Assembly (NCBI GenBank): GCA_964404825.1
Contig: CAYOLQ010000009.1
Coordinates: 1-63,707, forward strand
Direction: 5' to 3'
Source of the DNA: an uncultured Chitinophaga sp.
GTDB lineage: Bacteria; Bacteroidota; Bacteroidia; Bacteroidales; GCA-2748055
Length of the DNA: 63,707 bases
Positions 2,160 through 23,621 of this stretch are shown here, in pieces (positions within the stretch are counted from its first letter, which is position 1; the number at the start of each line of letters is the position of its first letter). A program made the position numbers and the translations under genes. Below the pieces are notes generated by a model. The model did not search any database and had not been told where the DNA came from. It saw only the letters and a program-made list of their open reading frames with translations.

Positions 2160-2205
2160 TTGATTCTGATTCACTTTTTAATTATCTTCGCATAAAATCA
2201 TTTCT

Positions 2206-4560: not shown

Positions 4561-4631
4561 CTGAATCGGGGGATTTTAATATAAAGAAAACGGGTTATTA
4601 AGGAAATGTTTTTTCTGCGAAAGGGAATATA

Positions 4632-5081
4632 CTATTTGTTCACATAAGATAATATTCCAATAGCATCTCCCTTTTTACCCTCCTTAAAACTGATCACAAC
4701 TGTATAAGCAGCTGATTTCTGACAGGCGAAGCTGATGGATTTATATTCCTTACCGGTTTCAGGGTAATACGTGCTGAGCAGAAGATTGGCCTGATCATAA
4801 AGACGTAAAACAGCCTCTCCCTCAGAGAAATCTCCATTACAGATGCTGAAACGATAAATAATTCCTTTTCTCAGGGCAAGTGACGATCGGAAAACAGGCG
4901 GTTTTTGATTAGGTGGGGCAGCATCAAGTTTAACAACGAAATCTTTAAGATAAGTAACATCATTTCCAGCGGTAAAAGCACATTTCTGTATATCTCCCTC
5001 AAGATCCTGCCCAATGCATGTGTCAAGAGAGAAAAACACTCCTGAAAATATAAAAATACAGAGGTAAATCTTACTGATCAT
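4632..5081 (-). CDS. small secreted protein, last gene of the sensory/ABC cluster
   Basis: 149 aa. N-terminal hydrophobic signal MISKIYLCIFIFSGVFFSLDTCIGQ. Its start lies 4 nt after the stop of the ABC gene. No family recognised. Confidence 0.65.
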   Translation of the reverse strand: MISKIYLCIFIFSGVFFSLDTCIGQDLEGDIQKCAFTAGNDVTYLKDFVVKLDAAPPNQKPPVFRSSLALRKGIIYRFSICNGDFSEGEAVLRLYDQANLLLSTYYPETGKEYKSISFACQKSAAYTVVISFKEGKKGDAIGILSYVNK

Positions 5082-5084
5082 GGC

Positions 5085-8000: not shown

Positions 8001-9053
8001 ACAAAGCTTTGCATTATAAAACAGGTTTTCAAATACTGTAAGTTCCTCAATAAGGAGATCGTCTTGTGGAATGTAGCCGATTACTCCCGCGAGTTTTTCC
8101 TTTTCTTCAAAGATATTAATTCCGTTAAGGTGAATGGTCCCTGAAGATGGGGCATCAATTCCCGAGAGAGTATTGAGCAGAGTTGTTTTTCCTGTGCCAC
8201 TGGCTCCCATGATTCCGATAAGATCGCCGTGTGTTGCACTTATGTTGACATTTCTAAGACCGGTAAGTCCGTTTTTAAACGTATAAGAGATATCACGTGC
8301 AACAAAGGATAGTTTTTCCGTGCTCGAATCGATTAGGAAGTGCGTGGAAATGTCGCTGTAATATATAGGTTTCCCTTTGGGGAGTTTGACTGTACTGCCA
8401 CGTGCAAATAAGTAAATACGGCCGCTGTGAAGACCCAAACCGTTCAGAAAAAGATCCTGATTTCCCGTATATTTTATAAAGTAGAGGTTAACATCAGGGA
8501 TACGAAGAATTAGAATTTCCTTGTCGAGCCGTTCGGCAAGTAAATGACGTTTGTTTCCCTTGTCAGATTCCTTATCGCTGATTATGAGAATATTAATATT
8601 ATCAATGGTAGAGAAATCATTTTCCAGGACAAAAGTTTCAATTGACTTGTAATCATCAGTGGAAATCCTGAACACATCGGATACAGTGGTTATGATAGCC
8701 AGTCTTTGCCGGGTAAGCTTTTTATCTGCATAAACCAGTTCAAAGAGTCTGACAAGCACGACGATTTTCTGACTCTGGTTAAGCGTTTTATTAATTTTTT
8801 TGCAGATTCCAAGTATTCTCACTGAATCCAGCACAGAGGTAAGCCGATGACCGTTTGTATCTTCCCCGGTTTTTCTGTCATCCTGTTCAGAACTCTCCAG
8901 AAAGAGTCTGAAATACTCTTCTGTTCCCGCTTCCCCCAGCTGCTGGATTAGAAAACTTTTTACATAACTTAGCTCATTCTCCTCCACACCACCGTCCTGT
9001 TTGGTGATAATGGCGAAAAGCTGCATCAGCGCTCTTAAAATTTCTTCACTCAC
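5085..9053 (-). CDS. multidomain ABC transporter: TerB-like N-terminal region, unknown domain, ABC ATPase, ABC-2/ABCG-like permease with a large loop, and an in-frame lipoprotein-like C-terminal module
   Basis: 1322-aa uninterrupted ORF with a GTG start that overlaps the stop of the upstream gene (GTGA). Walker A GASGTGKTTLLN (codons near 8180-8215). Signature/Walker B LSGGQRKRLNIALEMIREPSLLFVDEPTSGL. About 6 TM helices follow. The last 298 aa begin MRNKISFILILAVFTFSCKG (ATG at 5978), a complete lipoprotein signal. Confidence 0.85.
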   Translation of the reverse strand: MSEEILRALMQLFAIITKQDGGVEENELSYVKSFLIQQLGEAGTEEYFRLFLESSEQDDRKTGEDTNGHRLTSVLDSVRILGICKKINKTLNQSQKIVVLVRLFELVYADKKLTRQRLAIITTVSDVFRISTDDYKSIETFVLENDFSTIDNINILIISDKESDKGNKRHLLAERLDKEILILRIPDVNLYFIKYTGNQDLFLNGLGLHSGRIYLFARGSTVKLPKGKPIYYSDISTHFLIDSSTEKLSFVARDISYTFKNGLTGLRNVNISATHGDLIGIMGASGTGKTTLLNTLSGIDAPSSGTIHLNGINIFEEKEKLAGVIGYIPQDDLLIEELTVFENLFYNAKLCFSDKSDEEIRIKVENTLLSLGLIDKKELKVGSVFNKTISGGQRKRLNIALEMIREPSLLFVDEPTSGLSSRDSENVMDLLRELTLKGKLIFVVIHQPSSEIYKMFDRVVIMDEGGYLIYCGNPVEGVMYFKKMDAQINSEIGECPACGNVNPEIIFNIIEARVVDDYGNYTHNRKVSPQKWEESFRQGNQNETIEEIHDSPQRTLKIPDWFSQFKIYCTRDLLSKISNRQYVILTLLETPLLGFILSYIIRYVADPSSDKYIFRENENIPIYIFMTLIVALFIGLQLSAEEIFRDRKILKREKFLNLSRSGYLLSKISVLFFISAIQAFAFVLVANTIVEVKGMLFVYWFAFFTTAAYANMLGLNISASFDSAILIYILIPLVIIPMMVLSGAMFSFDKLNRNITRVDKVPVLAEFMPTKWSYEALMVHQFKDNRFEEMLYNIEKRINNSDFKQSYFIPELEDLLNECEQEYTLNGVIIEKASALRTIRNELISEKKVFEGTIKLNYDEIVVEKFNPELAEKISLYLTELNMYYLELFTAANREKNNMVRSAIENRKEQYYSWLDIYTNESVSDEVRKIFERKKILSYNDRLIQKIDPVFLDPQPSSVIDFRSHFYAPRKHFLGKYFDTYWFNMTVIWFLTLIFYITLYYDLLRKVLHFSFFPNIITFVNYKSKMRNKISFILILAVFTFSCKGKPKETLFVPGSEMEQGELKVSVQAMNEIIENISSPIEMAAVVKDLGTPFSSRYLSNLDAIDNHGSSFKMAYTLGILGADLGYLNVYEKTGSSVNYLAAINKIADGLKISQFFDFSTMKRLASSSSNIDSLMFLSVHSFNLMDDHLRVTDRSNLSALMITGVWIEGMYLATQVVKEKHDNSLAEYIGEQKVILNDILLILKNYQRDAQFADLIKDLELIKSDFDGVKISYELGEPVAVEKDGMLMIVQQESSTVVISEEILSRIVETTARIRNKQLTI

Positions 9054-9430
9054 GGATGATAACTAAAATGTTTGAAAGGCACATCTACCATTTCACTGTA
9101 TTCAATTCCTGCATCGCGCATATCCTCATCATATTCAGGATAATACCAATTTACATGAACTTTCTTACCCATATCATTCATTTTTTCAAGGATTGTAAGG
9201 ATATCGAGCAGAAGTTTTGATGACGCAGTGTTAAAATAGGTAAGCTTAAATGTAAATTCTGTTTCAGAGAAAGACTCCAGGGCATACTGATTAAGCCATT
9301 CGAGAATGGGTTTGTAAAAGCTGAAAACATCCTCAGGTAAAGATTTCCCGCTTATTTCAAGTTTGCCGGTTTCGTGAACGAAATTGACTTTTGGGCTATC
9401 GTCTTTTTCTATAAAAAGTAAATTATCCAT
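9050..9430 (-). CDS. SiaC-like regulatory phosphoprotein (DUF1987 family)
   Basis: 126 aa from the ATG at 9430 (MDNLLFIEKDDSPKVNF...GKLEISGKSLPED...YFNTASSKLL...). Size and motifs fit DUF1987/SiaC. The longer track ORF (to 9541) overlaps the upstream gene and is rejected. Confidence 0.8.
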   Translation of the reverse strand: MDNLLFIEKDDSPKVNFVHETGKLEISGKSLPEDVFSFYKPILEWLNQYALESFSETEFTFKLTYFNTASSKLLLDILTILEKMNDMGKKVHVNWYYPEYDEDMRDAGIEYSEMVDVPFKHFSYHP

Positions 9431-9434
9431 TGTT

Positions 9435-10013
9435 TTATATATTTCGGGGGATTGTAGAGGTAAAAAGAAAAAATGAGTGTGACTCAGAAATGGGAAAAAA
9501 CAGAAACTCCAGGTTTTTTCCGGTCTTCCTTCGAATATCAATAAAACCTAATCCGGCACCGCCCTTATCTGATAGATGTCCTTCTTTCAGCTGCTTTTTA
9601 TAAAGTTCATCGAGTTGTTTTTTTGAAAGAGAATTTATATGGTTAAGGAGATCTGTTATGTATGGTATTCTTTCTACTTTAATAACATTGCCGGTGGTTA
9701 TGCTATATATCTGGTTATTCCGGCTGATAAGGAATATTCCATGGTTGTATTCCGAATCCTTTTCATTTTCAGGATGAACAGCGTGTTTTGAGATATTTTG
9801 TAAGCACTCCACCATAACATGGTAAACTTTTTTCTGCAGCGCCTCGGATTCATCAATTTTGGACATGTTTCCTTCAGCAAGCGTAGTAAAGGTTTTCATG
9901 ATCTGATGATTAATTTCACCTTCATACGCAAGAGTTATTTCATGCTCCTTCATACCCTTGTAGAAATCGTAAACGAAATCCAGAAATCCGCTATTTGATA
10001 AGGCTTTCGGCAT
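9435..10013 (-). CDS. SiaB-like serine/threonine protein kinase (GHKL/anti-sigma-factor-type ATPase fold)
   Basis: 192 aa. N-box-like VECLQNISKHA and G-box DKGGAGLGFIDI. Sits between a PP2C phosphatase gene and a DUF1987 gene, as in siaABC. Confidence 0.75.
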   Translation of the reverse strand: MPKALSNSGFLDFVYDFYKGMKEHEITLAYEGEINHQIMKTFTTLAEGNMSKIDESEALQKKVYHVMVECLQNISKHAVHPENEKDSEYNHGIFLISRNNQIYSITTGNVIKVERIPYITDLLNHINSLSKKQLDELYKKQLKEGHLSDKGGAGLGFIDIRRKTGKNLEFLFFPISESHSFFLFTSTIPRNI

Positions 10014-10243
10014 TAATAATAATTTTTATATTGAATTTAAATTTATCAGAATTATACAACTGAAATTCCGGTTTAAAAAAATATGTGCCAATTATAAATT
10101 TGCATTGTTTAAGAGCAGTTCATATTATAGGTCAGAGTGATTCTGATTCAATTGAAAACATTGCCCGATAGCAAATCTGATTGAATTACTTTTCAATATT
10201 AACGCCAATTTACATTAAAATTTATTATGAGAGCCGGAAATCA

Positions 10244-12865
10244 TTAAAATTCTATACCAATCATCAGTACATCATCGAGTTGTTTAAAGCCATCCCTCCA
10301 ATTAGTAAAATCTTCCTCAAATAATGTGTGAAATTGTTTCATCGTGAAGCCGGGGTGTTCAAGAATCATTTCCCTTAGCCGGCCGGTTGAATATTTTCTT
10401 CCGTGCGGACCACCTAACTGATCAGTAATCCCATCGGAAAAAATGAATATTTTATCAGATTTTTTAAAGGAAATATAATTGTTTACAAAATCCTCTTCAA
10501 TTTTCTTGCCTATACTAATTCCTCCAATGGATTTGCGATCCCCTTTAAATTCTATAAGCTCTCCTTCGCTTAAAAGGAGTAACGGACGATGGGCTCCTGC
10601 AAAAACAAGTTCCTTCTTTTTAAGGTTTATTTTACAAAATGCAATATCCATTCCATCCCTTGTATCAGGATTTTCGGTATCCTGCTTTAAAGTATGGCGT
10701 ACGTTACGGTGCAGCGTATCGCAGATTTCAGCCGGAGACTGTTCTTTTTCCTTGTCGACAATATTATTCAGAAGGAAAAATCCAATAAATGATAACAGCG
10801 CTCCCGGAACACCATGACCTGTGCAATCCACCGCTGCTATGTAAATGTCATCATTCTTTTTAAAGTACCAGGGAAAATCCCCCGAAACAACATCCCTTGG
10901 CCTATAAAAAATAAAGCATTGGGGCAGACTTTGTTTTATGAATTCAATGTCAGGCAGTAGTGCTGACTGAATTCTTTCTGCATAATTTATACTATCTCCG
11001 ATATTTTTATTCTTTATCTGGATCTCTTTTTCAATCCTTTTTGCTTCAGTGATATCATGACCTACAAAAAGAACAGTCTCCAGCTCATCATTAGTGAATT
11101 CCGGTATAGCATCGATACTCATGATTCGTTCGGTTAGCTTTTCGCCCATTTTTACAGAGAGTGAAATCTCATTGTTGGTTTTCACGGGATTTGAAATTAT
11201 ACTCCGTAGTGAAGAATCAAAGTAATTATGAAGGGGAGGGGAAAAATTCAGCTCACTGAGTGGTTTGTTTTGCAAATCGAGCGGGTTAATACCTATGTAA
11301 TCTTCAACAACAGGGTTTGCATAATGGAAATGACCTGAGGTACTCAACCTGATTATCATGTCAAGAGAGTTTTCAGAGAGTGATTGCATACGGGTTTTGA
11401 GCCGTTCCTCCTTTTCAGCTCTGATTCTCTCGGTAATATCGCTGGAATTTATAATAATTCCCTGAATTGCAGGGTCATCCAGCAAATTTTTAGCTGTTGA
11501 TTCCAGATAAATACGTACGCCTTCTTTCTTAATAAATGAATACTGAATTGTTGTTTCAATACCGGGATTTTCAATCGAATTGGCAATTAACCTTCTTAGG
11601 TTTGCAGCCCCGTCCCTTGAAAGACGTTCAAAATCCTTACCCTGAATCATTTCCTCCGGAGTATAACCAAGAATTCGGGTTACAGATGGACTTACATAAT
11701 TCATCTGCAATTTGGCAGAATAAATTGAAATTACTTCGGATGCGTTTTCCAACAACCAGCGAAGTTTACCCTGTGCATTCTGAACTTCGGTTATTTTGGC
11801 CTCTAGCTGCTCATTGGATTTTCGAAGTTGTTCCTGGGTTGCCTTCATTTCTTCTGCGTTTTCCTGCAGAGTTTGTTCATTTTGCCTTAGCTCAAGGGTC
11901 ATGTTACACGATTCTTCCAAAAGCATCTCGGTCTTCTGATTGATTTTCAGATTATAGATAGTTCTGGCAATTGTTTCACCCAGCTCAAGAAGAAACTGTA
12001 TAACAATTTTTGGAAGTTTTTCATTTATGGAAGCGAATTCGAGCACTCCCTGCAATTTCCCATCTGTAATAAGAGGAATCAATAGAAGACTTTTCGGTTT
12101 CTGATCACCAATCAATCCTGAACTTAAGGTAATGAAATCATCAGGAATTTCGGTACGATAAACAAAATCCATTTCATAAGCACACTGTCCTACCAAACCT
12201 TCTCCAATCCTGAATTCCTGCCTGAGATATTTTTGCCTGTTATAGGCATAGGTAGCTGAATTAACTAAAACCTTTCGATCGATATCGTAAATGTACATAG
12301 CTCCCTGAACAACCTGTATATAGTTTATCAGATTCTTCAGTACATGAAATGACATAACATCTATCTTATTATGCAATCGTAAAATTCTGGATATCATGTC
12401 TTTGCCTTCTGAAATCCAGTTTTGGTCGCTTTCTTTTCTTTGATTAGCTTTTAAAAAATTCTGAAGTAAAAGAAGAGATTTCCCAAGAATATCTTCATCA
12501 TTTTCCGGCACAAAATTTCTTTTATAATCACCCTTACCAATTCCATAGGCATACTCGGAATACTTTTCAATTAAGGTCTGCCTGGTTTCTATTTCATTAA
12601 GTAATCTGGTTTTATCCTGATTTTGGTTCCTCATGTTTTTTAGAAATAATACACTCAGTATAATTGGAAGGCAATCTGTCAGCCAGAGAGCAGGATTATT
12701 CCTGTGGATTTCAATAATTCCATAAATAGAGATTTTAAGATCCCTGATAACCATGGTAGCAATCCATACCAGAAACAAACCAATGAGTAAGGAAATGAAA
12801 ACAGCCCTTTCAGGAATCTTTTCCTGTATAACAGTATAGCTGGTTTTTATATCCTTGATGTTCAT
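10244..12865 (-). CDS. membrane-anchored GAF-PAS-PAS-PP2C (SpoIIE/RsbU/SiaA-type) protein phosphatase
   Basis: 873 aa. N-terminal TM helices, a GAF region (VLKNLINYIQVVQGAMYIY...), an E/Q-rich coiled coil and two PAS-like repeats. C-terminal PP2C motifs AAVDCTGHGVPGALLS, IFSDGITDQ and DDVLMIGIEF. The ATG overlaps the upstream stop (ATGA). Confidence 0.9.
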   Translation of the reverse strand: MNIKDIKTSYTVIQEKIPERAVFISLLIGLFLVWIATMVIRDLKISIYGIIEIHRNNPALWLTDCLPIILSVLFLKNMRNQNQDKTRLLNEIETRQTLIEKYSEYAYGIGKGDYKRNFVPENDEDILGKSLLLLQNFLKANQRKESDQNWISEGKDMISRILRLHNKIDVMSFHVLKNLINYIQVVQGAMYIYDIDRKVLVNSATYAYNRQKYLRQEFRIGEGLVGQCAYEMDFVYRTEIPDDFITLSSGLIGDQKPKSLLLIPLITDGKLQGVLEFASINEKLPKIVIQFLLELGETIARTIYNLKINQKTEMLLEESCNMTLELRQNEQTLQENAEEMKATQEQLRKSNEQLEAKITEVQNAQGKLRWLLENASEVISIYSAKLQMNYVSPSVTRILGYTPEEMIQGKDFERLSRDGAANLRRLIANSIENPGIETTIQYSFIKKEGVRIYLESTAKNLLDDPAIQGIIINSSDITERIRAEKEERLKTRMQSLSENSLDMIIRLSTSGHFHYANPVVEDYIGINPLDLQNKPLSELNFSPPLHNYFDSSLRSIISNPVKTNNEISLSVKMGEKLTERIMSIDAIPEFTNDELETVLFVGHDITEAKRIEKEIQIKNKNIGDSINYAERIQSALLPDIEFIKQSLPQCFIFYRPRDVVSGDFPWYFKKNDDIYIAAVDCTGHGVPGALLSFIGFFLLNNIVDKEKEQSPAEICDTLHRNVRHTLKQDTENPDTRDGMDIAFCKINLKKKELVFAGAHRPLLLLSEGELIEFKGDRKSIGGISIGKKIEEDFVNNYISFKKSDKIFIFSDGITDQLGGPHGRKYSTGRLREMILEHPGFTMKQFHTLFEEDFTNWRDGFKQLDDVLMIGIEF

Positions 12866-13631: not shown

Positions 13632-14186
13632 TTATAAGTTTTTTATAAAATTAATTATTTTGTCGGCATCAAGGATATAATCCGGATGAAACATATTTAT
13701 ACATGCTTCAGGCATGGTTCCAATCTCACAAAATTTTGGATCCTCAACAATGGTAATTCCCCCTTCCTTCTTAATCTTGTACATACCTTTTGCTCCGTCC
13801 ATGTTTGCTCCTGAAAGCAATACTCCTACAGCTTTATTCCCGAAGACTTCACCTGCTGTATCAAAAGTGATATCAAGAGAAGGTCGGGAATGGTTTACAG
13901 GTTCACTTATGGATAGGGAAAAGCGGTTTGAATGTTCGAGCATAAGATGGTAATTTGACGGTGCAAGATATACTCTTCCTTTCCTGATGGGTTCCTTATC
14001 ATCCGGTTCACGTATTATTAATCTGGAGTTAATCTGCAATGCTTCTGCAAATCCAGATCTTACAGTTCTTAATCGGTGAAGACATAACACAATAGGGTGA
14101 GCATAACCTTCTGGCAGGTTACTTAGCAGTTGATTCACGGTTTTAAAACTTCCTGCTGATCCTCCTATAATAATTATCTTTTCCAG
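13632..14186 (-). CDS. cheB: CheB-type protein-glutamate methylesterase catalytic domain (no receiver domain); start codon unresolved
   Basis: Catalytic-triad context: GGSAGS (Ser codon 14157-14159), CLHRL (His), RPSLDITFDT (Asp). The track start (GTG 14138) lies downstream of the Ser. The frame is open up to the TAA at 14190-14192. CTG 14184-14186 is used here only as a nominal start. Confidence 0.75.
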   Translation of the reverse strand: MEKIIIIGGSAGSFKTVNQLLSNLPEGYAHPIVLCLHRLRTVRSGFAEALQINSRLIIREPDDKEPIRKGRVYLAPSNYHLMLEHSNRFSLSISEPVNHSRPSLDITFDTAGEVFGNKAVGVLLSGANMDGAKGMYKIKKEGGITIVEDPKFCEIGTMPEACINMFHPDYILDADKIINFIKNL

Positions 14187-14189
14187 AAA

Positions 14190-15017
14190 TTATGTTTTAA
14201 TTTTTCTAAATATTTTTTCGGAACTGTTATATACTGTAAGATTTTTTTTGTTGTCGATATAATCATCAAGATTGTCTTTTATTCCGGTAATTAAAAATCC
14301 ACCTTCATCGATAATGGAAATCAATTGATCAAGAACTTTTTCTTTATGCTCAGGAGTATAAACCAGAAGATTATTTCTGAAGAAGAGCAAATTTGTGTGT
14401 GAAGGCACTGACTCAAAATTCAGATTTTGTGTGAAAAAATTAACATTCTTTAATAGGGAATGATCAATTGCGTAGTCCTTACCATTTTTTTTAATGTACC
14501 GGTAAATATCATTTTCCGGAAATATCTTTTCAAAGTTTTCAATACTTGTTTCGATTTGTCTGAGGGGAATAATACCTCCGGATAATCTGGATATTGTTTT
14601 TTCGGCTATACATGAAATTCCGGCTTCAAAAGTCAGTTTCGGGAAAACTATCTGAAGTAAAATCAGAAAGGAAAAAAGATCCTGTCCGTTGCTGGCACCT
14701 GGAAACCAAATCTGTGGTTTGTTAAAGGATATGAGAAGTTCTGGAATTACGTCAAAGCTGATAACTTTCCAGGTTTCGGGATCCCTGAAAAGCTCAATAT
14801 GCGTATCGGTTATTTCAAAGAGGAATTCATCAAAAAAATCATCATCTTCAAGGATTCTTGAAGAAAGAAGTCCGGGGTACTTCAGATGATGCAGCATTAT
14901 TGAGTTATCCAGAGCAAACCGAAATGCCATTGGCGAGTACTGACTGAAATCGTAGCCAAACTTTTGTTGTATTTCCCGTATAATTTTTCTCGTTTCAACA
15001 ATTCCTATTTCAGGCAT
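14190..15017 (-). CDS. CheR-like methyltransferase paralogue with a degenerate SAM-binding motif
   Basis: CheR N-domain motif IELFRDPETW is present. The canonical W-x-AGCSTG-E motif reads IWFPGASNGQD. Start taken at the ATG at 15017 (MPEIGIVETRK). The longer track ORF (to 15083) would overlap the upstream gene by 56 nt. Confidence 0.7.
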   Translation of the reverse strand: MPEIGIVETRKIIREIQQKFGYDFSQYSPMAFRFALDNSIMLHHLKYPGLLSSRILEDDDFFDEFLFEITDTHIELFRDPETWKVISFDVIPELLISFNKPQIWFPGASNGQDLFSFLILLQIVFPKLTFEAGISCIAEKTISRLSGGIIPLRQIETSIENFEKIFPENDIYRYIKKNGKDYAIDHSLLKNVNFFTQNLNFESVPSHTNLLFFRNNLLVYTPEHKEKVLDQLISIIDEGGFLITGIKDNLDDYIDNKKNLTVYNSSEKIFRKIKT

Positions 15018-15027
15018 ATCAGTTGTT

Positions 15028-17676
15028 TTACGGTTCATGCAGTTGTTGCCTGAGTCTGTCAATTTCTTTATTGGCATCCTCAAGTAACTGGTATTTTAGC
15101 TTTTTCTCAGTAATGTCGTGAGCAAGAAAATAAACCTTATAGATTTCTCCTTCTTCATTTTTTACAGGAGAAAAGGTTGCCATAAGCCAAACTTCTTCAC
15201 CAGTTGGTTTTGTTCTGCGAATTACTCCGGAATAGGTTTTATCTTTAGTAATCTCTGACCAGATTTTTTCAAATTGCTGTTTCTCAGTATCTTTAAGGAA
15301 TAATCTGATATTTTTACCGAGTACTTCCTTTCCCGAGTATCCGGTTGTTTCTATGTAATTCGCATTGACATCAGCAATGATTCCTTCAACTGATAATTCA
15401 CATTTAATTATAGATGCATCAACAGCATTGCTTAATGATTCCATTTCAATACTGCTTCTTCTTATCTCATTGGCCTGGTTTTCGAGTGATTCCTGTTGTT
15501 TTTTATCTTGCGTAATGTCATGTGCAATATTCAGAATTTTATAGGGTTTTCCTGTTCGATCAAGAATAGGAGTATAGGTTTGATTGAGCCAGATTTCATT
15601 CCCGTTAAAAAGTCTGAAATGTTCTGTCTGACTAATGGTCTCACCATCCTTTAATTTTTTCCAGAATTCTTTATACTCATTCGAGTATTTATCCACTACT
15701 GAGAAGTCGCTATGATGTTTTCCGACAACCTGTTCTCTGGATGATTCCATCAGAAAGAGAAATTTTTCGTTCACATCTGCAAAACGTCCGTTAATACTAT
15801 ATTCGGCTACAAGTGAAGAGGAATTTACAGCATTCAGGATACCGGTTATCTCTGTTTCTTTTCGAAGAGATTCTTCCTGAGCATCACGAAGTTCCTGAAC
15901 ATTCCTGACCATTTTCTCTTCCTGTCTGGCCATTTCCTCGGCCTGTTTTCGCGACTTTTCAAGCAGGCTGATGGTTTTTTCATTAATCCTCACGGCAGCA
16001 AGGGTATTTGCAATACTTTCTCCCAGTTGTTCAACAAATCCTGTTTCATGTGGTTCAAGTATTCTGAATGATGCTATCTCCAGGATACCAAAGAGCTCAT
16101 TTTCCAGTTTGAGCGGTACGATTAAAATACAACGAGGCTGAGCTTGCCCGATCCCTGAAGAAATTTCAAAATAGTTCTTCGGAATATCCGTCAGGTACAT
16201 GATTTCTTTTTCAAGTGCACAGGTACCTATAAGCCCTTCCCCATATAGAATTCTTCGGGAAATATATTTGCGCCTGTCGTATGCAAATGCGGCAACCATG
16301 TCTATAACGGGACTGGATTCTTCCTGATTATTAAGATAAATTGCCCCCTGATCGGCATTAATATATTTCACAAGGTTTTTAATTACTTTAAAAGCCAATT
16401 CTTCAAGATTTTCCCTTTCCGAACGGAAAATCTCCCCAAAACTTGCTATCCCTTCGCTAAGCCATCTTCGCTTCTCCTCCTGGGTTTTATGAATAATATC
16501 CTCATGCTCTGCTTCTCTTAAACGTTGCGCCATTTTCAATAGAGAATTTCCAAGTACATCATCAGCTCCCAACGGCTTAAAATCTTCCCGGATATTTAAC
16601 TCACCGATTTTATCAGCAAATCTTATTTTGTGGTTAAGACTTTCAACATGATCATTAAGGTTTTCAGCCATTTCATTTAGATCGTCAGATGAATTCAGGT
16701 TAAGCTTCTCCGGAACCTTACCAGATTTTAATTCCCTCAGAAAATGCTTTAATTGTGAAACAGATTGATAAATGTTAACAAATGATCTGTAAAAAGCCGC
16801 TATACAGAATCCCCCGAAAAAAAGAACAATCCAAATAAACCGGTTAATGACCTTCGCTGATCCCTTCGTATATATCTTCTCTGATTCCTTTTCAAGGTTT
16901 ACTGCAATATCACTGATCTGGAGAACATTAAAATTGATTTGTGCCCGCAAGCCGGCAGATTCATTATTCCCTGCCTTTCTGTATAAGGTGAGCAGGGATT
17001 CAGTATTATCGAAAAAGCTGTTCAGTATAAGTTCATTTTCAATTCCCGCTGCGTTCACCGGAAAAGAAAGACTTCTTTCGGATTCATAATAATCAATAAG
17101 TTTTTCAAGTTGAGTGGGATCCCGGTTTATGAGAAAACTCATTGCAATACCAGAAAGCTTTTCAATAAATACTGCAGCTCTCGGGGAAAGTGCGTTTTTG
17201 TTGATATTCAGGATAGATTGAAGCCTTGTATACCATTGATTTAACAAACCAGTTCCAAGATCTCCTCTCTCATAGATTAAGCCTGTAAATTCAGTACAAA
17301 GTTGTTTTACATCCTTAACATTTTCCTCCGCATCCTTAATGCTTCGCTGAAGCGTAAGATTATCTGAAACAAGTTTGCCAGCACTCAGACTGGATAATTT
17401 TGTATTAAGCCTGATGCAGACTTCTTCGATCCCATCGTTACTGACCTTTCCGGAGCTCCCACTCTCCAGATTACCAAACTGGCTTTTCAGATTTGCCGCT
17501 TCCAGAAAAAGTATTGAAGCTTCATGCCTTAGTTTTGCTATATCCTGGCGACCCTGATCATATGCCATAATGTTGTTTACGCGGTCCACCAGCATCAGGG
17601 AACATACAAACCAGAATATTACTGATAAACAGATTAGTAAAATGAACCGGGATCTCAATGTCGGTGCGGGTATCAT
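15028..17676 (-). CDS. MCP-like transmembrane sensor (TM, helical ectodomain, TM, HAMP) carrying GAF-PAS-PAS in place of an MCP signalling domain; no output domain
   Basis: 882 aa. TM1 at about aa 10-30, a roughly 250-aa helical extracytoplasmic region, TM2 (FIWIVLFFGGFCIAAFY), a HAMP-like segment, GAF (VIKNLVKYINADQGAIYL...), an E/Q-rich coiled coil and two PAS repeats ending ...AHDITQDKK and ...AHDITEKK. ATGA overlap with cheR. Confidence 0.85.
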   Translation of the reverse strand: MIPAPTLRSRFILLICLSVIFWFVCSLMLVDRVNNIMAYDQGRQDIAKLRHEASILFLEAANLKSQFGNLESGSSGKVSNDGIEEVCIRLNTKLSSLSAGKLVSDNLTLQRSIKDAEENVKDVKQLCTEFTGLIYERGDLGTGLLNQWYTRLQSILNINKNALSPRAAVFIEKLSGIAMSFLINRDPTQLEKLIDYYESERSLSFPVNAAGIENELILNSFFDNTESLLTLYRKAGNNESAGLRAQINFNVLQISDIAVNLEKESEKIYTKGSAKVINRFIWIVLFFGGFCIAAFYRSFVNIYQSVSQLKHFLRELKSGKVPEKLNLNSSDDLNEMAENLNDHVESLNHKIRFADKIGELNIREDFKPLGADDVLGNSLLKMAQRLREAEHEDIIHKTQEEKRRWLSEGIASFGEIFRSERENLEELAFKVIKNLVKYINADQGAIYLNNQEESSPVIDMVAAFAYDRRKYISRRILYGEGLIGTCALEKEIMYLTDIPKNYFEISSGIGQAQPRCILIVPLKLENELFGILEIASFRILEPHETGFVEQLGESIANTLAAVRINEKTISLLEKSRKQAEEMARQEEKMVRNVQELRDAQEESLRKETEITGILNAVNSSSLVAEYSINGRFADVNEKFLFLMESSREQVVGKHHSDFSVVDKYSNEYKEFWKKLKDGETISQTEHFRLFNGNEIWLNQTYTPILDRTGKPYKILNIAHDITQDKKQQESLENQANEIRRSSIEMESLSNAVDASIIKCELSVEGIIADVNANYIETTGYSGKEVLGKNIRLFLKDTEKQQFEKIWSEITKDKTYSGVIRRTKPTGEEVWLMATFSPVKNEEGEIYKVYFLAHDITEKKLKYQLLEDANKEIDRLRQQLHEP

Positions 17677-18539
17677 TTACGAATTGGGTTTTTAAAATAC
17701 ACCTGATTTTTTTTCACGAACTGAGTTGAATAGGGCCCTATGATGCTCTCATGAACACCTAACACAAGACATCCGTCGCTACTAAGATTCTTGTAAAACA
17801 AATTAAATACTTTGTTCTGCAAATCACTATTGAAATAGATGATTACATTTCTGCATATTATCAAATCAAATTTAATCGCAAACAAATTTTCGTCCTTAAC
17901 TAGATCAATCTTTTTAAAAACCGGTTTCTCAGTCAGAAACTTTTTCATCTGAATCAAATCCCTGGCTTTATCAACGATAAAATAATTTTCATGAAGGTGT
18001 TGTTTTTTTTCCTCACTGGGATCCTTTTCAGGAAAAATTACGGTATCCAGATTATCTATATAGGCTTGATTAAACCTGTATTTGTACTTTCCGGTTTTTG
18101 CGAGATCCAATACATCTGAGTTTATATCACTGGCAAAAATTTCAGCTTTTGATAGCATGTTTAACTGGTCAAGAAGAATCATCATTGAGTATACTTCCTG
18201 TCCCGTTGAACAGCCTGCGTGCCAGATACGCATACTTTTCCTGCCGGAAAATTTAGGCAGAATTTCATCCCTGAGGTTAATCCAGATGGAGGGGTCGCGA
18301 AAAAGTTCAGTAGTATTTACAGTAATGCTCATTACTACTTTTTCCATAAATTGAGGATTAGAAAAAATAGTATCTTCTAATTGACTAATCGACAACTTAC
18401 TATCAGACAGTATTTTAGAGATCCTTCGTTTCAGTGATTTAAGGGAATAGTTTGTGAAGTCATAATTAGAGCGATCCCTGAATACTTCAAGAAAAGCTAT
18501 AATTTCCTCATCCTTAATTTCCTGATCAGTAGGACTCAT
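17673..18539 (-). CDS. cheR: CheR-type protein-glutamate O-methyltransferase
   Basis: 288 aa. Canonical TELFRDPSIW and IWHAGCSTGQEVYS motifs, and ...IICRNVIIYF.... Confidence 0.9.
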   Translation of the reverse strand: MSPTDQEIKDEEIIAFLEVFRDRSNYDFTNYSLKSLKRRISKILSDSKLSISQLEDTIFSNPQFMEKVVMSITVNTTELFRDPSIWINLRDEILPKFSGRKSMRIWHAGCSTGQEVYSMMILLDQLNMLSKAEIFASDINSDVLDLAKTGKYKYRFNQAYIDNLDTVIFPEKDPSEEKKQHLHENYFIVDKARDLIQMKKFLTEKPVFKKIDLVKDENLFAIKFDLIICRNVIIYFNSDLQNKVFNLFYKNLSSDGCLVLGVHESIIGPYSTQFVKKNQVYFKNPIRK

Positions 18540-18731
18540 ATCCCCATTTTTTACAAGAGTAAATCTAAGAAAAATATCCTGTTTTCAAATCTGATTTATT
18601 TCATCGCAAAACAGAACCTTTTTATATCACCATAAAGACATGTTCCGGATATAAAAAAATCCCACCCTGATTAAAAAAATTATATATCGGATTTATTTAT
18701 ATTTGTGAGAGTATGTCTTAAAACTAACACC

Positions 18732-19427
18732 ATGAGAAAATCTTTTTTTACTTTTTTACTTCTGTTCGCTATTTCCGGTTCATACCTCATTGCACAGAAT
18801 TGCGACATGTACTTCCCCGATAAGGCAGGATCGATACGCGAACTTACCAATTTCGATAAAAAGGGAAAAATGACAGGAATGGTACATCAGGAATTCATAG
18901 GGAAAGATGTTACCGGAAACGAAACATCAGTTACCGTGCTGAGCAAAGCATTCGACAAAGATAGCAAGGAACTGAGCTCTAATCAAATGATTATCAAATG
19001 TAAGAATGGTGTTTTCAGCATTGATATGAAGGATTTTATTGATAAATCCATGCTTGAAGCATATAAGGAGATGGAAATTATTATGACCGGAGACAATATT
19101 AATTATCCTTCAGGTTTTAAGGTGGGAGATAAACTTGAAGATGCCAGTATCAATATAGTAGTAAAAAATCAGGGTGTTGTTTTTATGAACTGGACCATTA
19201 CCATTTCAAACAGGATGGTAACTGCGCAGGAAAGTATTTCCACAGATGCGGGTACATTTCAGACGTATAAGCTTACATATGATCTTCAGACAAAAACCCG
19301 CATTATGACCATAAACTCCAAAGCTGCCGAATGGCTTTGTTCAGGTGTCGGGGTAATAAAATCGGAAAGCTATGATAAGACCGGTAAGCTTTTGGCCTAT
19401 TCCTTACTAACAAAATTGAAAAACTAA
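18732..19427 (+). CDS. secreted protein, function unknown
   Basis: The ATG at 18732 gives MRKSFFTFLLLFAISGSYLIAQ (signal peptide). The track GTG start at 18705 is the last base of a TATATTTG -7 box (18698-18705), so the downstream ATG is preferred. Confidence 0.7.
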   Translation: MRKSFFTFLLLFAISGSYLIAQNCDMYFPDKAGSIRELTNFDKKGKMTGMVHQEFIGKDVTGNETSVTVLSKAFDKDSKELSSNQMIIKCKNGVFSIDMKDFIDKSMLEAYKEMEIIMTGDNINYPSGFKVGDKLEDASINIVVKNQGVVFMNWTITISNRMVTAQESISTDAGTFQTYKLTYDLQTKTRIMTINSKAAEWLCSGVGVIKSESYDKTGKLLAYSLLTKLKN

Positions 19428-19589
19428 GTTTGGAATTGTATAATAAAAGTATCGGAATGAACAGAGGGGAGTTACAGGGATGAGATTAAACATTTGATCC
19501 CTTTTTATTCCGATGATCTATCTGCCTCAATGAAGATGTATCAAAGTTGAAACAAGTTAACTCGATTTCCTGTTATTTGGAATCGATAT

Positions 19590-20246
19590 TTAGCTCTTGA
19601 TGGCTCTGTATAAAATACTTTCTCCCAAATAAACTATTTCCATCTCCCCAATAGAAATCAGCTTTACAAGAATATCCGATGCTTTTTTACGATTTAACAA
19701 TGCCAGTTTGCAGAAATCCTCCAAACTGATTGTTGTATTTTTACTGAGGTAGTCAAGTAATTTTTTTTCTGTTTCAGTAAATGGAAGAAACACACCTTTT
19801 TTTCGATTTTCGATTTTCCAGACTCGCAGTTGTATCGCATTTACAAGAAAATTTTCATCACAAACCCTGATATAAGCAAGCCATTTTCCCTCAGGTGATT
19901 TTGCCAGGTAGGGTTTTTCATCACCTTTGGGGATATCAACCTCCAGAATTGTCTTGCCGTCAATAAGCCATTTGCGTGCTTTAAATTTTATTTCTGGTTT
20001 ACAAAATAATCCTGCAGCTGAATCGATCATGTAAATTTCTTCCTCACTTCTGATTCCCGCGATTTTCCCGTTATCTTTTACACCAATGAGTAACTTTCCT
20101 CCAAATGAATTTGAAAAGGCTACCAGAGTTTTTGCGATTTTACGAACATCACTGATTTCAAATTTGAAATCCTGTCGCAAGTGTTCCCCTTCTTCAATTA
20201 ATTTCTGAATATAGCTGCTCACCTTGATTTTTGTTATTGAGAACAA
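19590..20246 (-). CDS. AlbA_2/Schlafen-type putative DNA-binding domain protein with a C-terminal wHTH-like region
   Basis: 218 aa. E..LEFK-like core (EGEHLRQDFKFEISD...IAKTLVAFSNSFGGKLLIGVKDNGKIAGI) is typical of the divergent AAA_4/AlbA_2 family. Confidence 0.6.
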   Translation of the reverse strand: MFSITKIKVSSYIQKLIEEGEHLRQDFKFEISDVRKIAKTLVAFSNSFGGKLLIGVKDNGKIAGIRSEEEIYMIDSAAGLFCKPEIKFKARKWLIDGKTILEVDIPKGDEKPYLAKSPEGKWLAYIRVCDENFLVNAIQLRVWKIENRKKGVFLPFTETEKKLLDYLSKNTTISLEDFCKLALLNRKKASDILVKLISIGEMEIVYLGESILYRAIKS

Positions 20247-20444
20247 TTCTAAATCTCAAATTTATAAAAATCCAAATGATCTGATAATGTATTATAAATC
20301 AATTTAAAATGTTAAGATTTATTTTTGGTACAATTCATCCCAGTAAAACATCGGCGCCAAGTAATTGGGAATTGATAACTTGATTTACTATATTTCCCAT
20401 CGCAAATTTTTTCTGATTACCATCAACTAAAAAAATTAACTAAT

Positions 20445-21941
20445 ATGAGTAATTCAAAAGAGTATAAAAAATCCGGTATGTCGAGGAGACAATTCGTATA
20501 TACCAGCGCTGCTGCAGCAGCTGGTCTGACAATCCTTCCCAGCGGAATCATAAGTGCTAAAGGCAGGACCGCACCGAGCGATAAACTGAATATTGCTGGC
20601 ATTGGTGTTGGAGGAATGGGTTTTGCCAATCTGAAAAACCTTGAATCTCAGAATATTGTAGGTGTGTGTGATGTTGATTGGGGTTATAGCAAACGGGTAT
20701 TTGACCATTATCCAAAAGCCGGGAAATACAAAGATTTTAGAAAAATGTATGATGATATGGGTAAATCCATTGATGCAGTAGTTGTTGCAACTGCTGATCA
20801 TACACATGCATTGGCTGCAGCTCAGGCAATGGCAATGGGAAAACACGCCTATGTTCAAAAACCACTTACACATTCTGCATATGAATCAAGACTTCTCACC
20901 AAACTGGCTGCAAAACACAAACTTGCTACCCAGATGGGAAACCAGGGTTCTTCAGGTGAAGGTGTGAGACAAACCTGCGAATGGATTTGGAGCGGACAAA
21001 TTGGTGAAATAACTAAAGTTGAGGCATTTACTGATCGCCCGATTTGGCCTCAGGGGCTTAATCGCCCTGCCAAAGGAATGTGGGTTCCCGAAACCCTTGA
21101 TTGGGATTTGTTTATTGGTCCGGCTCCTATGCGTCCATATCACGAACTTTATACTCCCTGGAACTGGCGCGGCTGGTGGGATTTTGGAACCGGTGCACTT
21201 GGAGATATGGCCTGCCATATTCTTCACCCGGTATTTGTGGGTCTGAAATTAAATTATCCGACTAAAGCACAGGGTAGCTCAACCTTGTTGTTAACCGACA
21301 GTGCCCCCAATGCGCAAATGGTTAAACTTACCTTCCCTGCCCGTGTAAAACCAAAAGAACTGAAGATTAATTTACCTGAAGTTGAAGTAACCTGGTATGA
21401 TGGTGGTCTTCAGCCCCCCTTGCCTAAAGGCTGGCCGGAAGGCAGAAATATGAATGATTCCGGTGGTGGAGTTATTTTCCATGGAACAAAGGACACCCTA
21501 ATCTGTGGTTGCTACGGAGTGAATCCCTGGCTGCTTTCAGGCCGGGTACCGGAAGTACCAAAAACACTTCGTCGGGTTGAAGAATCTCATGAAATGGATT
21601 GGGTAAGAGCTTGTAAAGAAAGTCCTGAAAGCCGGGTGGAAACTGCTTCTCCATTCCGCGTTGCCGGTCCTTTCAATGAAATGGTTGTTATGGGTGTTAT
21701 GGCAGTTCGTCTCCAGGCCCTTAACAAAGAGCTTCTATGGAATGGCGAAAAGATGGAGTTTACCAATATCGGTGACTCAGAGGAAATTAAAACTGTTATC
21801 GAAGACGGCTTTAAAATCCATGACGGGCATCCCACTTTTGACAAAAAGTGGACCCCGGCGGTTAATGCCAGACAGTTCTCAAAAGAGCTTGTTAAACATA
21901 CTTATCGCGAAGGCTGGGTTCTTCCTGAAATGCCTGTTTAA
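20445..21941 (+). CDS. Tat-exported Gfo/Idh/MocA-family oxidoreductase
   Basis: 498 aa. Twin-arginine signal SRRQFVYTSAAAAAGL, Rossmann motif NIAGIGVGGMG, and ...VVVATADHTHA.... Confidence 0.85.
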   Translation: MSNSKEYKKSGMSRRQFVYTSAAAAAGLTILPSGIISAKGRTAPSDKLNIAGIGVGGMGFANLKNLESQNIVGVCDVDWGYSKRVFDHYPKAGKYKDFRKMYDDMGKSIDAVVVATADHTHALAAAQAMAMGKHAYVQKPLTHSAYESRLLTKLAAKHKLATQMGNQGSSGEGVRQTCEWIWSGQIGEITKVEAFTDRPIWPQGLNRPAKGMWVPETLDWDLFIGPAPMRPYHELYTPWNWRGWWDFGTGALGDMACHILHPVFVGLKLNYPTKAQGSSTLLLTDSAPNAQMVKLTFPARVKPKELKINLPEVEVTWYDGGLQPPLPKGWPEGRNMNDSGGGVIFHGTKDTLICGCYGVNPWLLSGRVPEVPKTLRRVEESHEMDWVRACKESPESRVETASPFRVAGPFNEMVVMGVMAVRLQALNKELLWNGEKMEFTNIGDSEEIKTVIEDGFKIHDGHPTFDKKWTPAVNARQFSKELVKHTYREGWVLPEMPV

Positions 21942-21961
21942 GCGATCTGATTTTTCAGAAA

Positions 21962-21997
21962 GGGGTGAGACAATTTTGGTTCTCACCCCTTTTTTTG
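21962..21997 (+). terminator. rho-independent terminator
   Basis: The ggggtgaga / tctcacccc stem (21962-21970 and 21981-21989) is followed by a T-run. Confidence 0.8.
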
Positions 21998-22137
21998 TTT
22001 ATTTAGCTGAATAATTGCTTATTTCATCGTTTCGAAATATCTCGATTTATACAGGATATCACAGGAAAAATTTTGACCTGTTTCGCCGAACGAATAATGC
22101 AGGTCCTTAAAAGAAGAATAATTCTATTCCTAAAAGA

Positions 22138-23610
22138 ATGATACTTTTTAAATCAAATTTTTTTAATCTCTTTCTGGTAATTTGGGTCTTTACTTTCAGT
22201 CAATGTAAAACCATTTCCCAACCCGAGGAGTTTTTCTGTAACCTTCTTGCAGGTGAGGCCACACAAACCAGTGTTGTTCTGCAGGCAAGATTACACTCTT
22301 CAGATACACTTGTAAATAATGATATCAAGGGGTTAGAAGGGTATATTAAATTTTGTATTACAAGGGATTTAGAATCTCAGTTTTATATGGAGAGTAATTT
22401 TTTCCATGCTACAGACAGCAATGATTTTATAGCAAAATATGAATTTGCAGGCCTCCGTCCTTCTCAAAAGTATTTTTACAGGATTTCTTATGGCCGGGAT
22501 TCCATTAACACAACATCAAGTGCATGGAACAGCTTTAAAACACTAAATTCATCCAACTCGGATAAAAGCGTAAGTTTTGTAGTTGTTACCGGAATGAATT
22601 TTGAAGCATTCCGGAACGGTAATTCAAAAAGCAATATTTTGAAAGCAGATAACGATGTCAAGAAATCCGGATTTCCTGCATTTCATTCTATTGCTGCATG
22701 TAAACCTGACTTCTGGATTGGAAATGGAGATAATGTTTATTACGACAAACCCGAAAATAGTCCGGCAATTTCTTTACAGGATATGCGATTACGCTGGCAC
22801 TGGCTTTTCAGTATGTCGGATTTTAACCAGATGCTTTCGCATACTTCAACGTACTGGATGATGGATGATCATGACTTCCGTTATAATGATTGTGATACTG
22901 TTTTAAAATATGATGAATCAGGAAACCCTTTACTACCCGATGTTTCACTAGGATCCGGAGTCTTCTACGAGCAGATCCCGCTATCTTCCATTATTAAAGA
23001 AAACAGGCCATCTTACAGAACGCACCGGTTAAATAAGGACGTGCAGATATGGATGCTTGAAGGCAGGCTTTTCAGATCACCCAATTCAATTCCCGATATC
23101 AATGGCAAAAGTATCTGGGGATCATCGCAGCTAAACTGGTTAAAAAGTACGCTTAAGGAAAGCGATGCCCCCTTCAGAATTGTCATTAGTCCTACTCCTC
23201 TGATTGGCCCTGATGATGCTTCAAAATCAGATAATCATACAAATATCGGAGGATTCAGAACAGAAAGGGATAGTCTGTTCAACTGGCTGAAAAATAATGG
23301 ATTTCGGAATAACGGACTTTATTTTATATGTGGAGACCGTCATTGGCAATACCACTCTATTGATCCTTCCGGATTTGAAGAGTTTTCGTGCGGAGCACTG
23401 GTAGATGCAAATGCCCGGGCAGGTATATCTCCCGGTGATACACTTTCTACGGATCCTCTTGGAACAATCATTCAGCCATATTTACAGAAAGAAATATCCG
23501 GCGGGTTTTTGTTTGTCAGTTCTCACAGAGATGAGTTCAATAGCCCATTACTATTTTTCAGATTTTATGATGATCAGAAAAAACTGTTATATGCCGTTCA
23601 GAAATTCTGA
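22138..23610 (+). CDS. PhoD-like metallophosphatase (alkaline phosphatase D family)
   Basis: 490 aa with an N-terminal signal. Metallophosphatase motifs GNGDNVYYD, MMDDHDF and ICGDRHWQYH. Confidence 0.8.
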   Translation: MILFKSNFFNLFLVIWVFTFSQCKTISQPEEFFCNLLAGEATQTSVVLQARLHSSDTLVNNDIKGLEGYIKFCITRDLESQFYMESNFFHATDSNDFIAKYEFAGLRPSQKYFYRISYGRDSINTTSSAWNSFKTLNSSNSDKSVSFVVVTGMNFEAFRNGNSKSNILKADNDVKKSGFPAFHSIAACKPDFWIGNGDNVYYDKPENSPAISLQDMRLRWHWLFSMSDFNQMLSHTSTYWMMDDHDFRYNDCDTVLKYDESGNPLLPDVSLGSGVFYEQIPLSSIIKENRPSYRTHRLNKDVQIWMLEGRLFRSPNSIPDINGKSIWGSSQLNWLKSTLKESDAPFRIVISPTPLIGPDDASKSDNHTNIGGFRTERDSLFNWLKNNGFRNNGLYFICGDRHWQYHSIDPSGFEEFSCGALVDANARAGISPGDTLSTDPLGTIIQPYLQKEISGGFLFVSSHRDEFNSPLLFFRFYDDQKKLLYAVQKF

Positions 23611-23621
23611 ACAGATTTGAG

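Follow-up and report, generated by a model that had tools for sequence, protein, structure and literature searches.

The 63.7-kb stretch of DNA analysed here (contig CAYOLQ010000009.1 of an uncultured Chitinophaga sp., referred to in full length as the window) contains a CheR/CheB protein methylation module that is encoded in one operon with a SiaABC-type partner switch. Nine co-oriented open reading frames (ORFs) on the minus strand, from position 18539 to 5085, form this operon in the order CheR-[sensor]-CheR-like-CheB-TMGAF-SiaA-SiaB-SiaC-ABC (Table 1). The junctions between the genes range from -4 to +8 nt, with the exception of one 230-nt gap and a nominal overlap of 56 nt, which is counted for the maximal CheR-like ORF. 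An earlier note on this DNA had described the first four genes as a CheR/CheR-like/CheB module around a sensor. These four genes are only its front part, and the SiaABC-type partner switch into which the module presumably feeds had not been recognised. No Rfam family was found within the operon, and promoter and terminator scans of the operon gave counts no different from those of shuffled sequence.

Table 1. Genes and linker motifs of the operon with their positions in the window (aa, amino acids; TM, transmembrane; HMM, hidden Markov model)
Feature	Position	Strand	Basis
CheR, protein-glutamate O-methyltransferase, 288 aa	17673..18539	-	PF01739 and CheR_N; operon gene 1
Membrane sensor, 882 aa	15028..17676	-	Pfam, hydropathy, AlphaFold2 model
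Sensor linker motif LLEKSRKQAEEMARQEEKMVRNVQELRDAQEESLRKE, aa 571-607	15856..15966	-	motif HMM E=2.4e-27
CheR-like, probable pseudo-methyltransferase, maximal ORF 297 aa	14190..15083	-	PF01739 E=1e-14
Receiver-less CheB methylesterase/deamidase, ~184 aa	13632..14186	-	CheB_methylest (PF01339) profile
TM-GAF protein, 253 aa	12862..13623	-	GAF_2 E=8.5e-7; two-TM hairpin; no linker motif
SiaA-like PP2C phosphatase, 873 aa	10244..12865	-	NCBIfam SiaA 1e-47, SpoIIE 4.5e-16
Phosphatase linker motif LLEESCNMTLELRQNEQTLQENAEEMKATQEQLRKSNEQLEAKI, from aa 315	11789..11923	-	motif HMM E=1.9e-4
SiaB-family protein kinase, 192 aa	9435..10013	-	NCBIfam SiaB_fam_kinase 3.4e-45, DUF6272 9e-39
SiaC-family regulatory phosphoprotein, ~127 aa	9050..9433	-	PF09345 2.2e-39, NCBIfam SiaC 2.6e-23
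TerB/ABC ATPase/ABC-2 permease with lipoprotein-like C-terminal part, 1322 aa	5085..9053	-	TerB 7e-8, ABC_tran 2e-30, ABC2_membrane 8e-21

The first gene of the operon encodes a canonical CheR, as had been proposed. The protein matches PF01739 with E=2e-36 and carries the N-terminal helical domain CheR_N. Motif I (AGCSTGQE), the aspartate following motif I (ASDIN) and the sequences FRDP and CRNVIIYF vary little or not at all among 15 orthologues. The protein has the CheR fold with the S-adenosylmethionine (SAM)-binding motifs intact. The 3' end of the gene and the start of the sensor gene share an overlap of 4 nt.

The second cheR-type gene is located, together with cheB, downstream of the sensor gene. 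Its translation probably starts at Met16 or Met23 of the maximal ORF, which gives a protein of about 275-282 aa that aligns over the whole CheR fold (5FTW, 5XLY; aa 68-278). In 17 orthologues motif I is not conserved (GASNGQD, PNSVSGDE, ASFDSGEE, GVCTVQD etc.) and the aspartate following it is replaced in all but one, whereas FRDP and the RN within CRNV persist. The protein diverges about twice as fast as CheR (28-46% versus 50-68% identity). Because the conserved SAM-binding motifs are lost, we regard the CheR-like protein as a probable pseudo-methyltransferase with a binding role retained. Its gene always sits directly 5' of cheB. The in-frame stop codon between the two genes led us to search for fused CheR-like/CheB proteins, and none was found among 23 homologues.

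The reading frame of CheB extends upstream to the in-frame TAA (14190-14192) that ends the CheR-like gene. Translated from position 14189, it covers positions 1-173 of the 174 positions of the CheB profile (E=1.3e-45), and the catalytic triad is present with Ser in GGSAGS, His in LCLHRL and Asp in ANMDGA. Judged from this frame, CheB does not begin at the GTG at 14138 that is chosen by ORF finders and in the public gene calls (168 aa); this start removes the catalytic serine. No ATG, GTG or TTG is present ahead of the serine. Probably, the start codon is the CTG at 14186, two codons past the stop codon of the CheR-like gene, and it is likely used by re-initiation or translational coupling. The CTG is kept in the closest relative, a TTG is found at the equivalent position in L007, and the junction of the two genes is unchanged in an independent assembly (95.4% nucleotide identity). 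The ORF begins at the catalytic domain, which makes up the whole of CheB; the N-terminal receiver of classical CheB is absent. Apart from the start codon, the earlier description of a CheR-like gene followed by a receiver-less CheB was correct.

The loss of the SAM-binding motifs in the CheR-like protein and a CheB that has neither a receiver nor an ATG, GTG or TTG start could also indicate that the methylation genes are the decaying, non-functional remnant of a lost chemotaxis system. We consider this highly improbable, as among distant orthologues CheR and CheB are 48-70% identical (CheR alone 50-68%) with all catalytic motifs intact, the position of the CTG/TTG start is conserved, and the block is kept in 16 genomes.

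The rear part of the operon encodes the partner switch. The 873-aa phosphatase consists of a two-TM hairpin (aa 22-75) with a periplasmic loop of 16 residues, a GAF domain (aa 175-303), a linker (aa 315-359), two PAS domains and a PP2C/SpoIIE domain (aa ~640-873), in which the metal-binding motifs are intact (SGDF661, DCTGHG680, SDGI810, DDVL864). The SiaB-family kinase matches Pseudomonas aeruginosa 6KKO chain A, and the SiaC-family protein matches P. aeruginosa SiaC (6KKO_C) with E=1e-14, the threonine of the NT(S) motif being aligned. Catalytic or phospho-acceptor residues are thus retained in the phosphatase, in SiaB and in SiaC alike. A regular expression search detected no GGDEF signature in the ORFs of the window, and accordingly no SiaD diguanylate cyclase. 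By these matches the Sia genes of the operon represent a bona fide SiaABC-type switch without SiaD.

The 882-aa sensor has two TM segments (aa 12-30 and aa 276-294 in a hydropathy scan), which are followed by a HAMP-like region with a weak HAMP match (aa ~295-358), a GAF domain (aa 423-559), a linker (aa 571-607) and two PAS domains (aa 619-724 and aa 762-857). The protein ends with a short helix after the second PAS domain and has no output domain. An AlphaFold2 model of the monomer, built on 40 homologues, reached a mean pLDDT (predicted local distance difference test) of 82.7. It shows an all-helical ectodomain (aa 31-275) at a pLDDT of about 90 and a HAMP-like helix-loop-helix after the second TM segment, and then the GAF and the two PAS domains. 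When compared to the PDB with Foldseek, the model gave tandem-PAS matches only, which are uninformative for the ectodomain. The chemoreceptor-like N-terminus and the order of the cytoplasmic domains had been read correctly from the sequence. We found no exact-sequence record of the sensor, and the 97%-identical protein P0001 was taken in its place.

Sensor and phosphatase are paralogous (phmmer, ~1e-40), as had been suspected, and have a GAF-linker-PAS-PAS core in common. Both proteins lack the signalling domain that defines a methyl-accepting chemotaxis protein (MCP), the hairpin to which CheA and CheW bind: MCPsignal (PF00015) gave no match in either of them even at E<=10, whereas the true MCP of locus L040, used as positive control for the library, was detected with E=8e-36. 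A C-terminal tether of the NWETF type was not found in the operon-type sensors, which end with a conserved short helix. Finally, all six-frame ORFs of the window were searched with phmmer using Tenuifilum CheA, CheW, CheY and CheD as well as an MCP hairpin tip as queries. CheR, the CheR-like protein and CheB were the only matches; no CheA, CheW, CheY, CheD, MCP or receiver domain was detected in the window, in line with the earlier statement that CheA, CheW and CheY are missing.

The linker between the GAF and the first PAS domain aligns without gaps between sensors and phosphatases. It contains a motif of four or five heptads, in each of which a pair of glutamates stands right before a hydrophobic core residue (EEM, EEM, EEL, EES in the sensors; EEL, EEL, EEM, EEL, EKL in the phosphatases). 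The consensus of the sensors is QAEEMAAQEEEMRQNMEELQATQEE (long form LLEqSQQQAEEMAAQEEEMRQNMEELQATQEEsaRK) and that of the phosphatases TEELxENEEELRQNAEEMRATQEEL (long form LLEESQxMTEELxENEEELRQNAEEMRATQEELEKSNEKLE). In the window the candidate pairs are E580/E581, E587(K588), Q594/E595 and E601/E602 in the sensor, where they lie in KQAEEMARQEEKMVRNVQELRDAQEE (aa 577-602), and E325, Q331, E338/E339, E345/Q346 and E352/Q353 in the phosphatase, of which the earlier note had quoted aa 333-366. The motif HMM scores 1.9e-4 with the phosphatase of the window and down to 1e-10 to 1e-11 with its orthologues.

In 215 unique sensor instances of the motif the solvent-facing residues Q21, E22, E23, R26, N28, E31, Q36 and E37 reach a conservation of at least 92%, and glutamine is the chief substitute at the pair positions 30, 31 and 38. 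EQ and QE pairs of this kind resemble the glutamine residues of MCPs that are deamidated by CheB. The sequence EExxA[ST] is present in 167 of 235 unique motif instances, and in the consensus it corresponds to the third heptad of both the sensors (EELQAT) and the phosphatases (EEMRAT). EExxA[ST] is also the published recognition sequence of CheR, with sites spaced by 7 residues (PMC1079850). The linker of the window phosphatase contains AEEMKAT, an exact Glu-Glu-X-X-Ala-Thr, and this was the sole match to [EQ][EQ]xxA[ST] among the window ORFs of at least 150 aa.

Conservation of the operon was assessed with 16 loci, which were obtained by scanning one genome per GTDB species with the alignment of the CheR-like protein as query. 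All are from metagenome-assembled genomes (MAGs) of Bacteroidales. The gene order is kept in all of them at sensor identities down to 28%, and a protein with the motif shares synteny with CheR, CheR-like and CheB in 16/16 genomes. The loci L018 (Acetobacteroides MAG; 1930-12600) and L020 (6264-11078) have no sensor gene; there CheR is directly followed by the CheR-like gene and the rest of the operon is kept. Consequently, the phosphatase and not the sensor is the constant partner of CheR and CheB. The TM-GAF gene is seen in all operon loci whose contig reaches that far, and the ABC gene follows SiaC in every locus with a long enough contig. The ABC ORF of the window runs in frame into a part of about 300 aa that is encoded separately in relatives where it was seen, and an internal sequence, MRNKISFILILAVFTFSC, resembles a lipoprotein signal peptide. 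Since assembly L105 has the same fusion, it is not a sequencing error. The TerB-ABC protein is presumed to be the output of the operon. A rearrangement beside the PhoD and GFO_IDH genes was observed on the contig of P0002 (sensor 71% identical); it parts CheR and the sensor from the remaining operon.

These loci also bear on an alternative explanation, namely that CheR and CheB are ordinary enzymes for MCPs encoded elsewhere in the genome, that their place in the operon reflects co-regulation and that the linker is unmodified. Within 10 kb on either side of the 16 operon loci no CheA, CheW, CheY or MCP was found, and in every one of them the three methylation genes are in synteny with both a motif protein and the Sia genes. 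Moreover, the EExxA[ST] heptads are conserved far above the needs of a coiled coil, and the che clusters of the Tenuifilum type described below, which show no recognisable MCP gene within 10 kb, have a motif protein in the slot after cheB. We regard MCPs encoded elsewhere as quite an unlikely explanation in view of these observations, even though true MCPs are encoded on some contigs with motif proteins (L040, L083), full che clusters exist in some Bacteroidales, and the genome was sampled over 63.7 kb only. The earlier note had argued from Bacteroidota being generally non-flagellated. This is not a safe premise, because some Bacteroidales relatives encode CheA and CheW and some motif-bearing metagenome contigs (taxon unknown) encode true MCPs.

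To see how far the motif is distributed, its profile was run against 1.84 billion representative proteins. The search returned 3,162 clusters at E<=1e-3, 815 of them at E<=1e-10. The motif defines a family, at least 3,162 clusters strong at 50% identity, whose members are by their domain content mostly output-less receptors of the type Cache/4HB-HAMP-GAF-PAS. Of 44 sampled representatives, 42 contain GAF, 42 PAS and 2 SpoIIE, and many have Cache, 4HB_MCP or HAMP; MCPsignal, HisKA and GGDEF are not among the 25 most common families listed for these representatives. The domain content of the 120 proteins most closely related to the window sensor follows this pattern. Because output domains are almost never present, the motif receptors must signal via partner proteins, like MCPs. 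A metagenome scan with the motif yielded at least 492 confirmed sites. About 10 of the 80 loci that were retrieved represent the CheR/CheB/Sia operon; the others contain orphan or tandem receptor genes, at times next to SiaC-like or TPR-PP2C phosphatase genes.

Several members of the family have an unusual structure or neighbourhood. In the giant proteins P0121, P0122, P0132 and P0139, which reach a length of 2,405 aa, the motif is repeated up to nine times between PAS domains in the form QEEE(L/M)RQN(L/M)EELQATQEE; in P0122 six tandem copies follow each other about 70 residues apart with no domain in between. In the loci L060, L065, L066, L073, L080 and L050 the gene for a short motif sensor (about 560-570 aa) has a SiaC-like gene in divergent orientation as its partner; in L050, SiaC paralogues form a tandem of three. 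Neither CheR or CheB nor SiaA or SiaB was found near these short sensors, which suggests a direct functional link between short motif receptors and SiaC-type proteins. PP2C (SpoIIE) phosphatases of about 765-825 aa with TPR repeats and without the motif are frequent near orphan motif receptors (L031, L034, L072, L079, L081, L083; domain content checked by Pfam for L031 and L034 only).

The arrangements just described leave room for another function of the motif. It could be an unmodified signalling helix or a docking site, be it for SiaB, for SiaC or for the packing of receptors, and CheR and CheB could modify another protein of the operon, e.g. the TM-GAF protein, SiaC or the TerB-ABC protein. 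Conservation of nearly all motif positions, and not of the glutamate pairs alone, fits a protein-protein interface. The same holds for motif proteins that are often found by SiaC-like genes without CheR and CheB, for up to nine motif copies per protein, and for the fact that most motif genes have no neighbouring cheR or cheB. An EExxA[ST] site is, however, present in no other protein of the operon. In addition, CheR, CheB and the motif occur together both in the operon and in the Tenuifilum-type clusters, and CheB/CheR fusion proteins bear a similar coil of EE heptads. A docking or signalling helix that escapes modification is, on balance, rather unlikely.

Three assemblies, one of them the complete genome of Tenuifilum thalassicum, contain the Tenuifilum-type clusters (L003 1-12283, L101 1658-13883, L102 1-14006). 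They encode a large coiled protein, a STAS-like protein, CheY, CheA, CheW, CheR, a HATPase, CheD and CheB (with receiver), directly followed by a motif protein of 758-761 aa with two TM segments, a GAF domain, the motif and three PAS domains. In L101 and L102 a hybrid histidine kinase follows. No MCP gene was detected within 10 kb in these clusters (phmmer with the MCP tip for L003, precomputed Pfam listings for L101 and L102). Both the motif proteins and the large upstream proteins end with an acidic-x-(L/F)-F sequence (DIELF, NLELF, DVEFF, VDLF, LELF, VELF). Such C-termini, which in the motif proteins have the form (E/D)LF, recall the CheR/CheB tether NWETF. The large upstream proteins also contain NLQYHDIIRQK(V/I)EH, which we take to resemble the D-x3-Q motif of CheZ.

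CheB-CheR fusion proteins provide a further context. The coil after their CheR domain, which we presume to be built of NEELQS[AT] heptads, was used as search query and gave 58 short ORFs that are 50-89% identical to it; for about 20 of these, the source gives the name 'CheB/CheR fusion protein'. In the one locus that was examined (L104) the heptad fragment lies directly after fragments of CheB_methylest, CheR_N and CheR. What the operon and the che clusters of the Tenuifilum type share is CheR, CheB and the motif; a coil with similar EE heptads is present in the fusion proteins. A dedicated 'non-MCP' clade for the CheR and CheB of the operon was looked for as well. There was no sign of it; the enzymes are 27-34% identical to, and equally far from, those of che clusters and of a CheB/CheR-fusion locus.

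From the conserved motif, the 16/16 synteny and the intact catalytic residues we favour, with a little more belief than doubt, the explanation that CheR and CheB reversibly methylate the linker and thereby tune the Sia-type partner switch and, through it, the ABC transporter. The earlier proposal that the two enzymes act on a non-MCP substrate, with the coils of the sensor and of the phosphatase as candidates, gains in silico support by these findings. With the same modest preference we interpret the locus as a chemotaxis-type adaptation module that was recruited to a Sia-type partner switch instead of a CheA/MCP array. In detail, the Glu/Gln pairs of the linker helix in both the phosphatase and the 882-aa sensor would be methylated by CheR and demethylated or deamidated by CheB. 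Neutralisation of the charges may shift the conformational equilibrium of the helix between GAF and PAS (its stability or register), as methylation does in MCPs. Such a shift would reset the activity of the phosphatase after a stimulus and would amount to adaptation or gain control. Since CheB has no receiver, feedback would have to rest on a preference of the enzymes for one conformation of their substrate. A sizeable periplasmic domain is present only in the sensor, which could signal to the phosphatase via hetero-oligomers of the homologous cytoplasmic cores. Phosphatase and SiaB kinase would together set the phosphorylation of SiaC, which in turn would control the adjacent TerB-ABC transporter and lipoprotein. 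The CheR-like protein might be a non-catalytic binder of the motif, possibly targeting CheB.

A number of observations weigh against methylation of the linkers. The segment had been described as an E/Q-rich coiled coil. In the AlphaFold2 monomer of the sensor, aa 571-592 have a pLDDT <50; the model for this reason decides neither for nor against a coiled coil, and even the helical state of the linker is not confirmed by it. Of the four pairs in the window sensor, two do not follow the consensus (E587-K588 and Q594-E595), and the protein holds no exact EExxA[ST]. About 85-90% of the motif-bearing genes in the 80 metagenome loci are not located beside CheR or CheB. Where true MCPs are encoded in addition to motif proteins, as in L040 and L083, CheR and CheB could serve the MCPs. 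Run against the PDB, the motif profile matched only coiled coils, without significance, but no MCP at E<=10, and the motif HMM scored negative on the true MCPs of L040 and L083. A homology of the motif to the methylation helices of MCPs (MH1/MH2) was rejected on these grounds, and the resemblance is that of a short pattern rather than of demonstrable homology. Furthermore, methylation of the linkers by CheR and CheB is derived in silico, the suggested control of the ABC transporter by SiaC is drawn from gene adjacency only, and the window covers 63.7 kb of a genome in which MCP, CheA or CheW genes may lie elsewhere.

Compared to the adaptation system of MCPs such as Tar and Tsr of E. coli, the operon uses the same two enzyme families, and the receptors likewise consist of a TM segment, a helical or Cache ectodomain, a second TM segment and HAMP. 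The many scattered or tandem motif receptor genes are also reminiscent of chemotactic bacteria, in which many MCP genes are served by one set of cheR and cheB. Unlike in MCP adaptation, the operon has no MCP signalling hairpin, CheA or CheW, its CheB has no receiver, and the output is a PP2C phosphatase with a partner switch. The candidate sites lie in a single linker helix from GAF to PAS, whereas in MCPs they lie in an antiparallel four-helix methylation bundle.

According to PMC9239204 (with reference to EMBO J 2020 and eLife 2021), P. aeruginosa SiaABCD is a partner switch in which SiaC controls the diguanylate cyclase SiaD. The operon shares with it the membrane-anchored PP2C phosphatase (SiaA), the SiaB kinase and the SiaC protein with its conserved threonine, in the same order. 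It differs in that a TerB-ABC transporter instead of SiaD follows SiaC, that the phosphatase contains GAF, the EE linker and two PAS domains, and that CheR, CheR-like, CheB, an extra sensor and the TM-GAF protein are encoded ahead of the phosphatase.

In CheB/CheR fusions a receiver-less CheB and a CheR are likewise linked to a non-MCP heptad coil, EELQ[SA]T is shared and PAS domains follow; unlike in the operon, enzymes and coil are held in one polypeptide. The usual output of these fusion proteins is a histidine kinase. A receiver-less CheB that is not controlled by CheA phosphorylation is described for the F3-class chemosensory systems of Campylobacterota (PMC9239204). The CheB of the operon resembles this enzyme in having the catalytic domain only, but F3 systems possess CheA, CheV, CheW and true MCPs. 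Finally, in the Che3/CrsR-CrsA system of Shewanella oneidensis a chemosensory-type cluster is reportedly coupled to a PP2C partner switch and not to the flagellar motor. The cluster is said to include an MCP and to act via CheA phosphorylation of a receiver domain, in contrast to the direct methylation of the phosphatase proposed for the operon.

To our knowledge, CheR and CheB have so far been shown to modify only proteins with an MCP signalling domain; no counter-example was found in the searchable literature, nor did literature searches retrieve a paper on the operon, on the motif, on CheR/CheB in combination with SiaA/SiaB or on the function of CheB/CheR fusions. If the proposed wiring of CheR and CheB to a PP2C switch is correct, reversible glutamate methylation would extend past chemotaxis-type arrays, because the only plausible substrates are non-MCP sensors with EE heptads, and it would be a general device for adaptation or gain control in other signalling architectures. 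A function would then be at hand for a very large family of output-less receptors in Bacteroidota and other bacteria, as well as for the widespread, long-unexplained CheB-CheR fusions and for pseudo-CheR. If methylation is confirmed, the motif receptors would be a new class of methyl-accepting receptors. More generally, they may constitute a second methyl-accepting class independent of MCPs, in which CheR and CheB (and CheD in some lineages) act on the linker, the output runs via PP2C/SiaB/SiaC or, in Tenuifilum relatives, via a CheA/CheW cluster that lacks a recognisable MCP, and the fusion proteins modify their own coil. We put this forward tentatively, with somewhat less than even confidence.

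The remaining features of the window lie outside the operon. Beside its start, at 18705-24449, a DUF3108-like protein, an AlbA_2/SLFN-like protein, a GFO_IDH_MocA oxidoreductase with a twin-arginine-like signal, a PhoD-like phosphatase and an AraC/Ada-type regulator are encoded. The synteny of these genes is kept in L105 and they have no relation to signalling. Further away, one tRNA gene (27684-27757, minus strand) and two riboswitches were identified: a molybdenum-cofactor riboswitch at 60508-60643 (minus strand, 57.5 bits) and a cobalamin riboswitch at 48399-48626 (plus strand, 82.7 bits), which is located just 5' of an 850-aa ORF (48622-51174).

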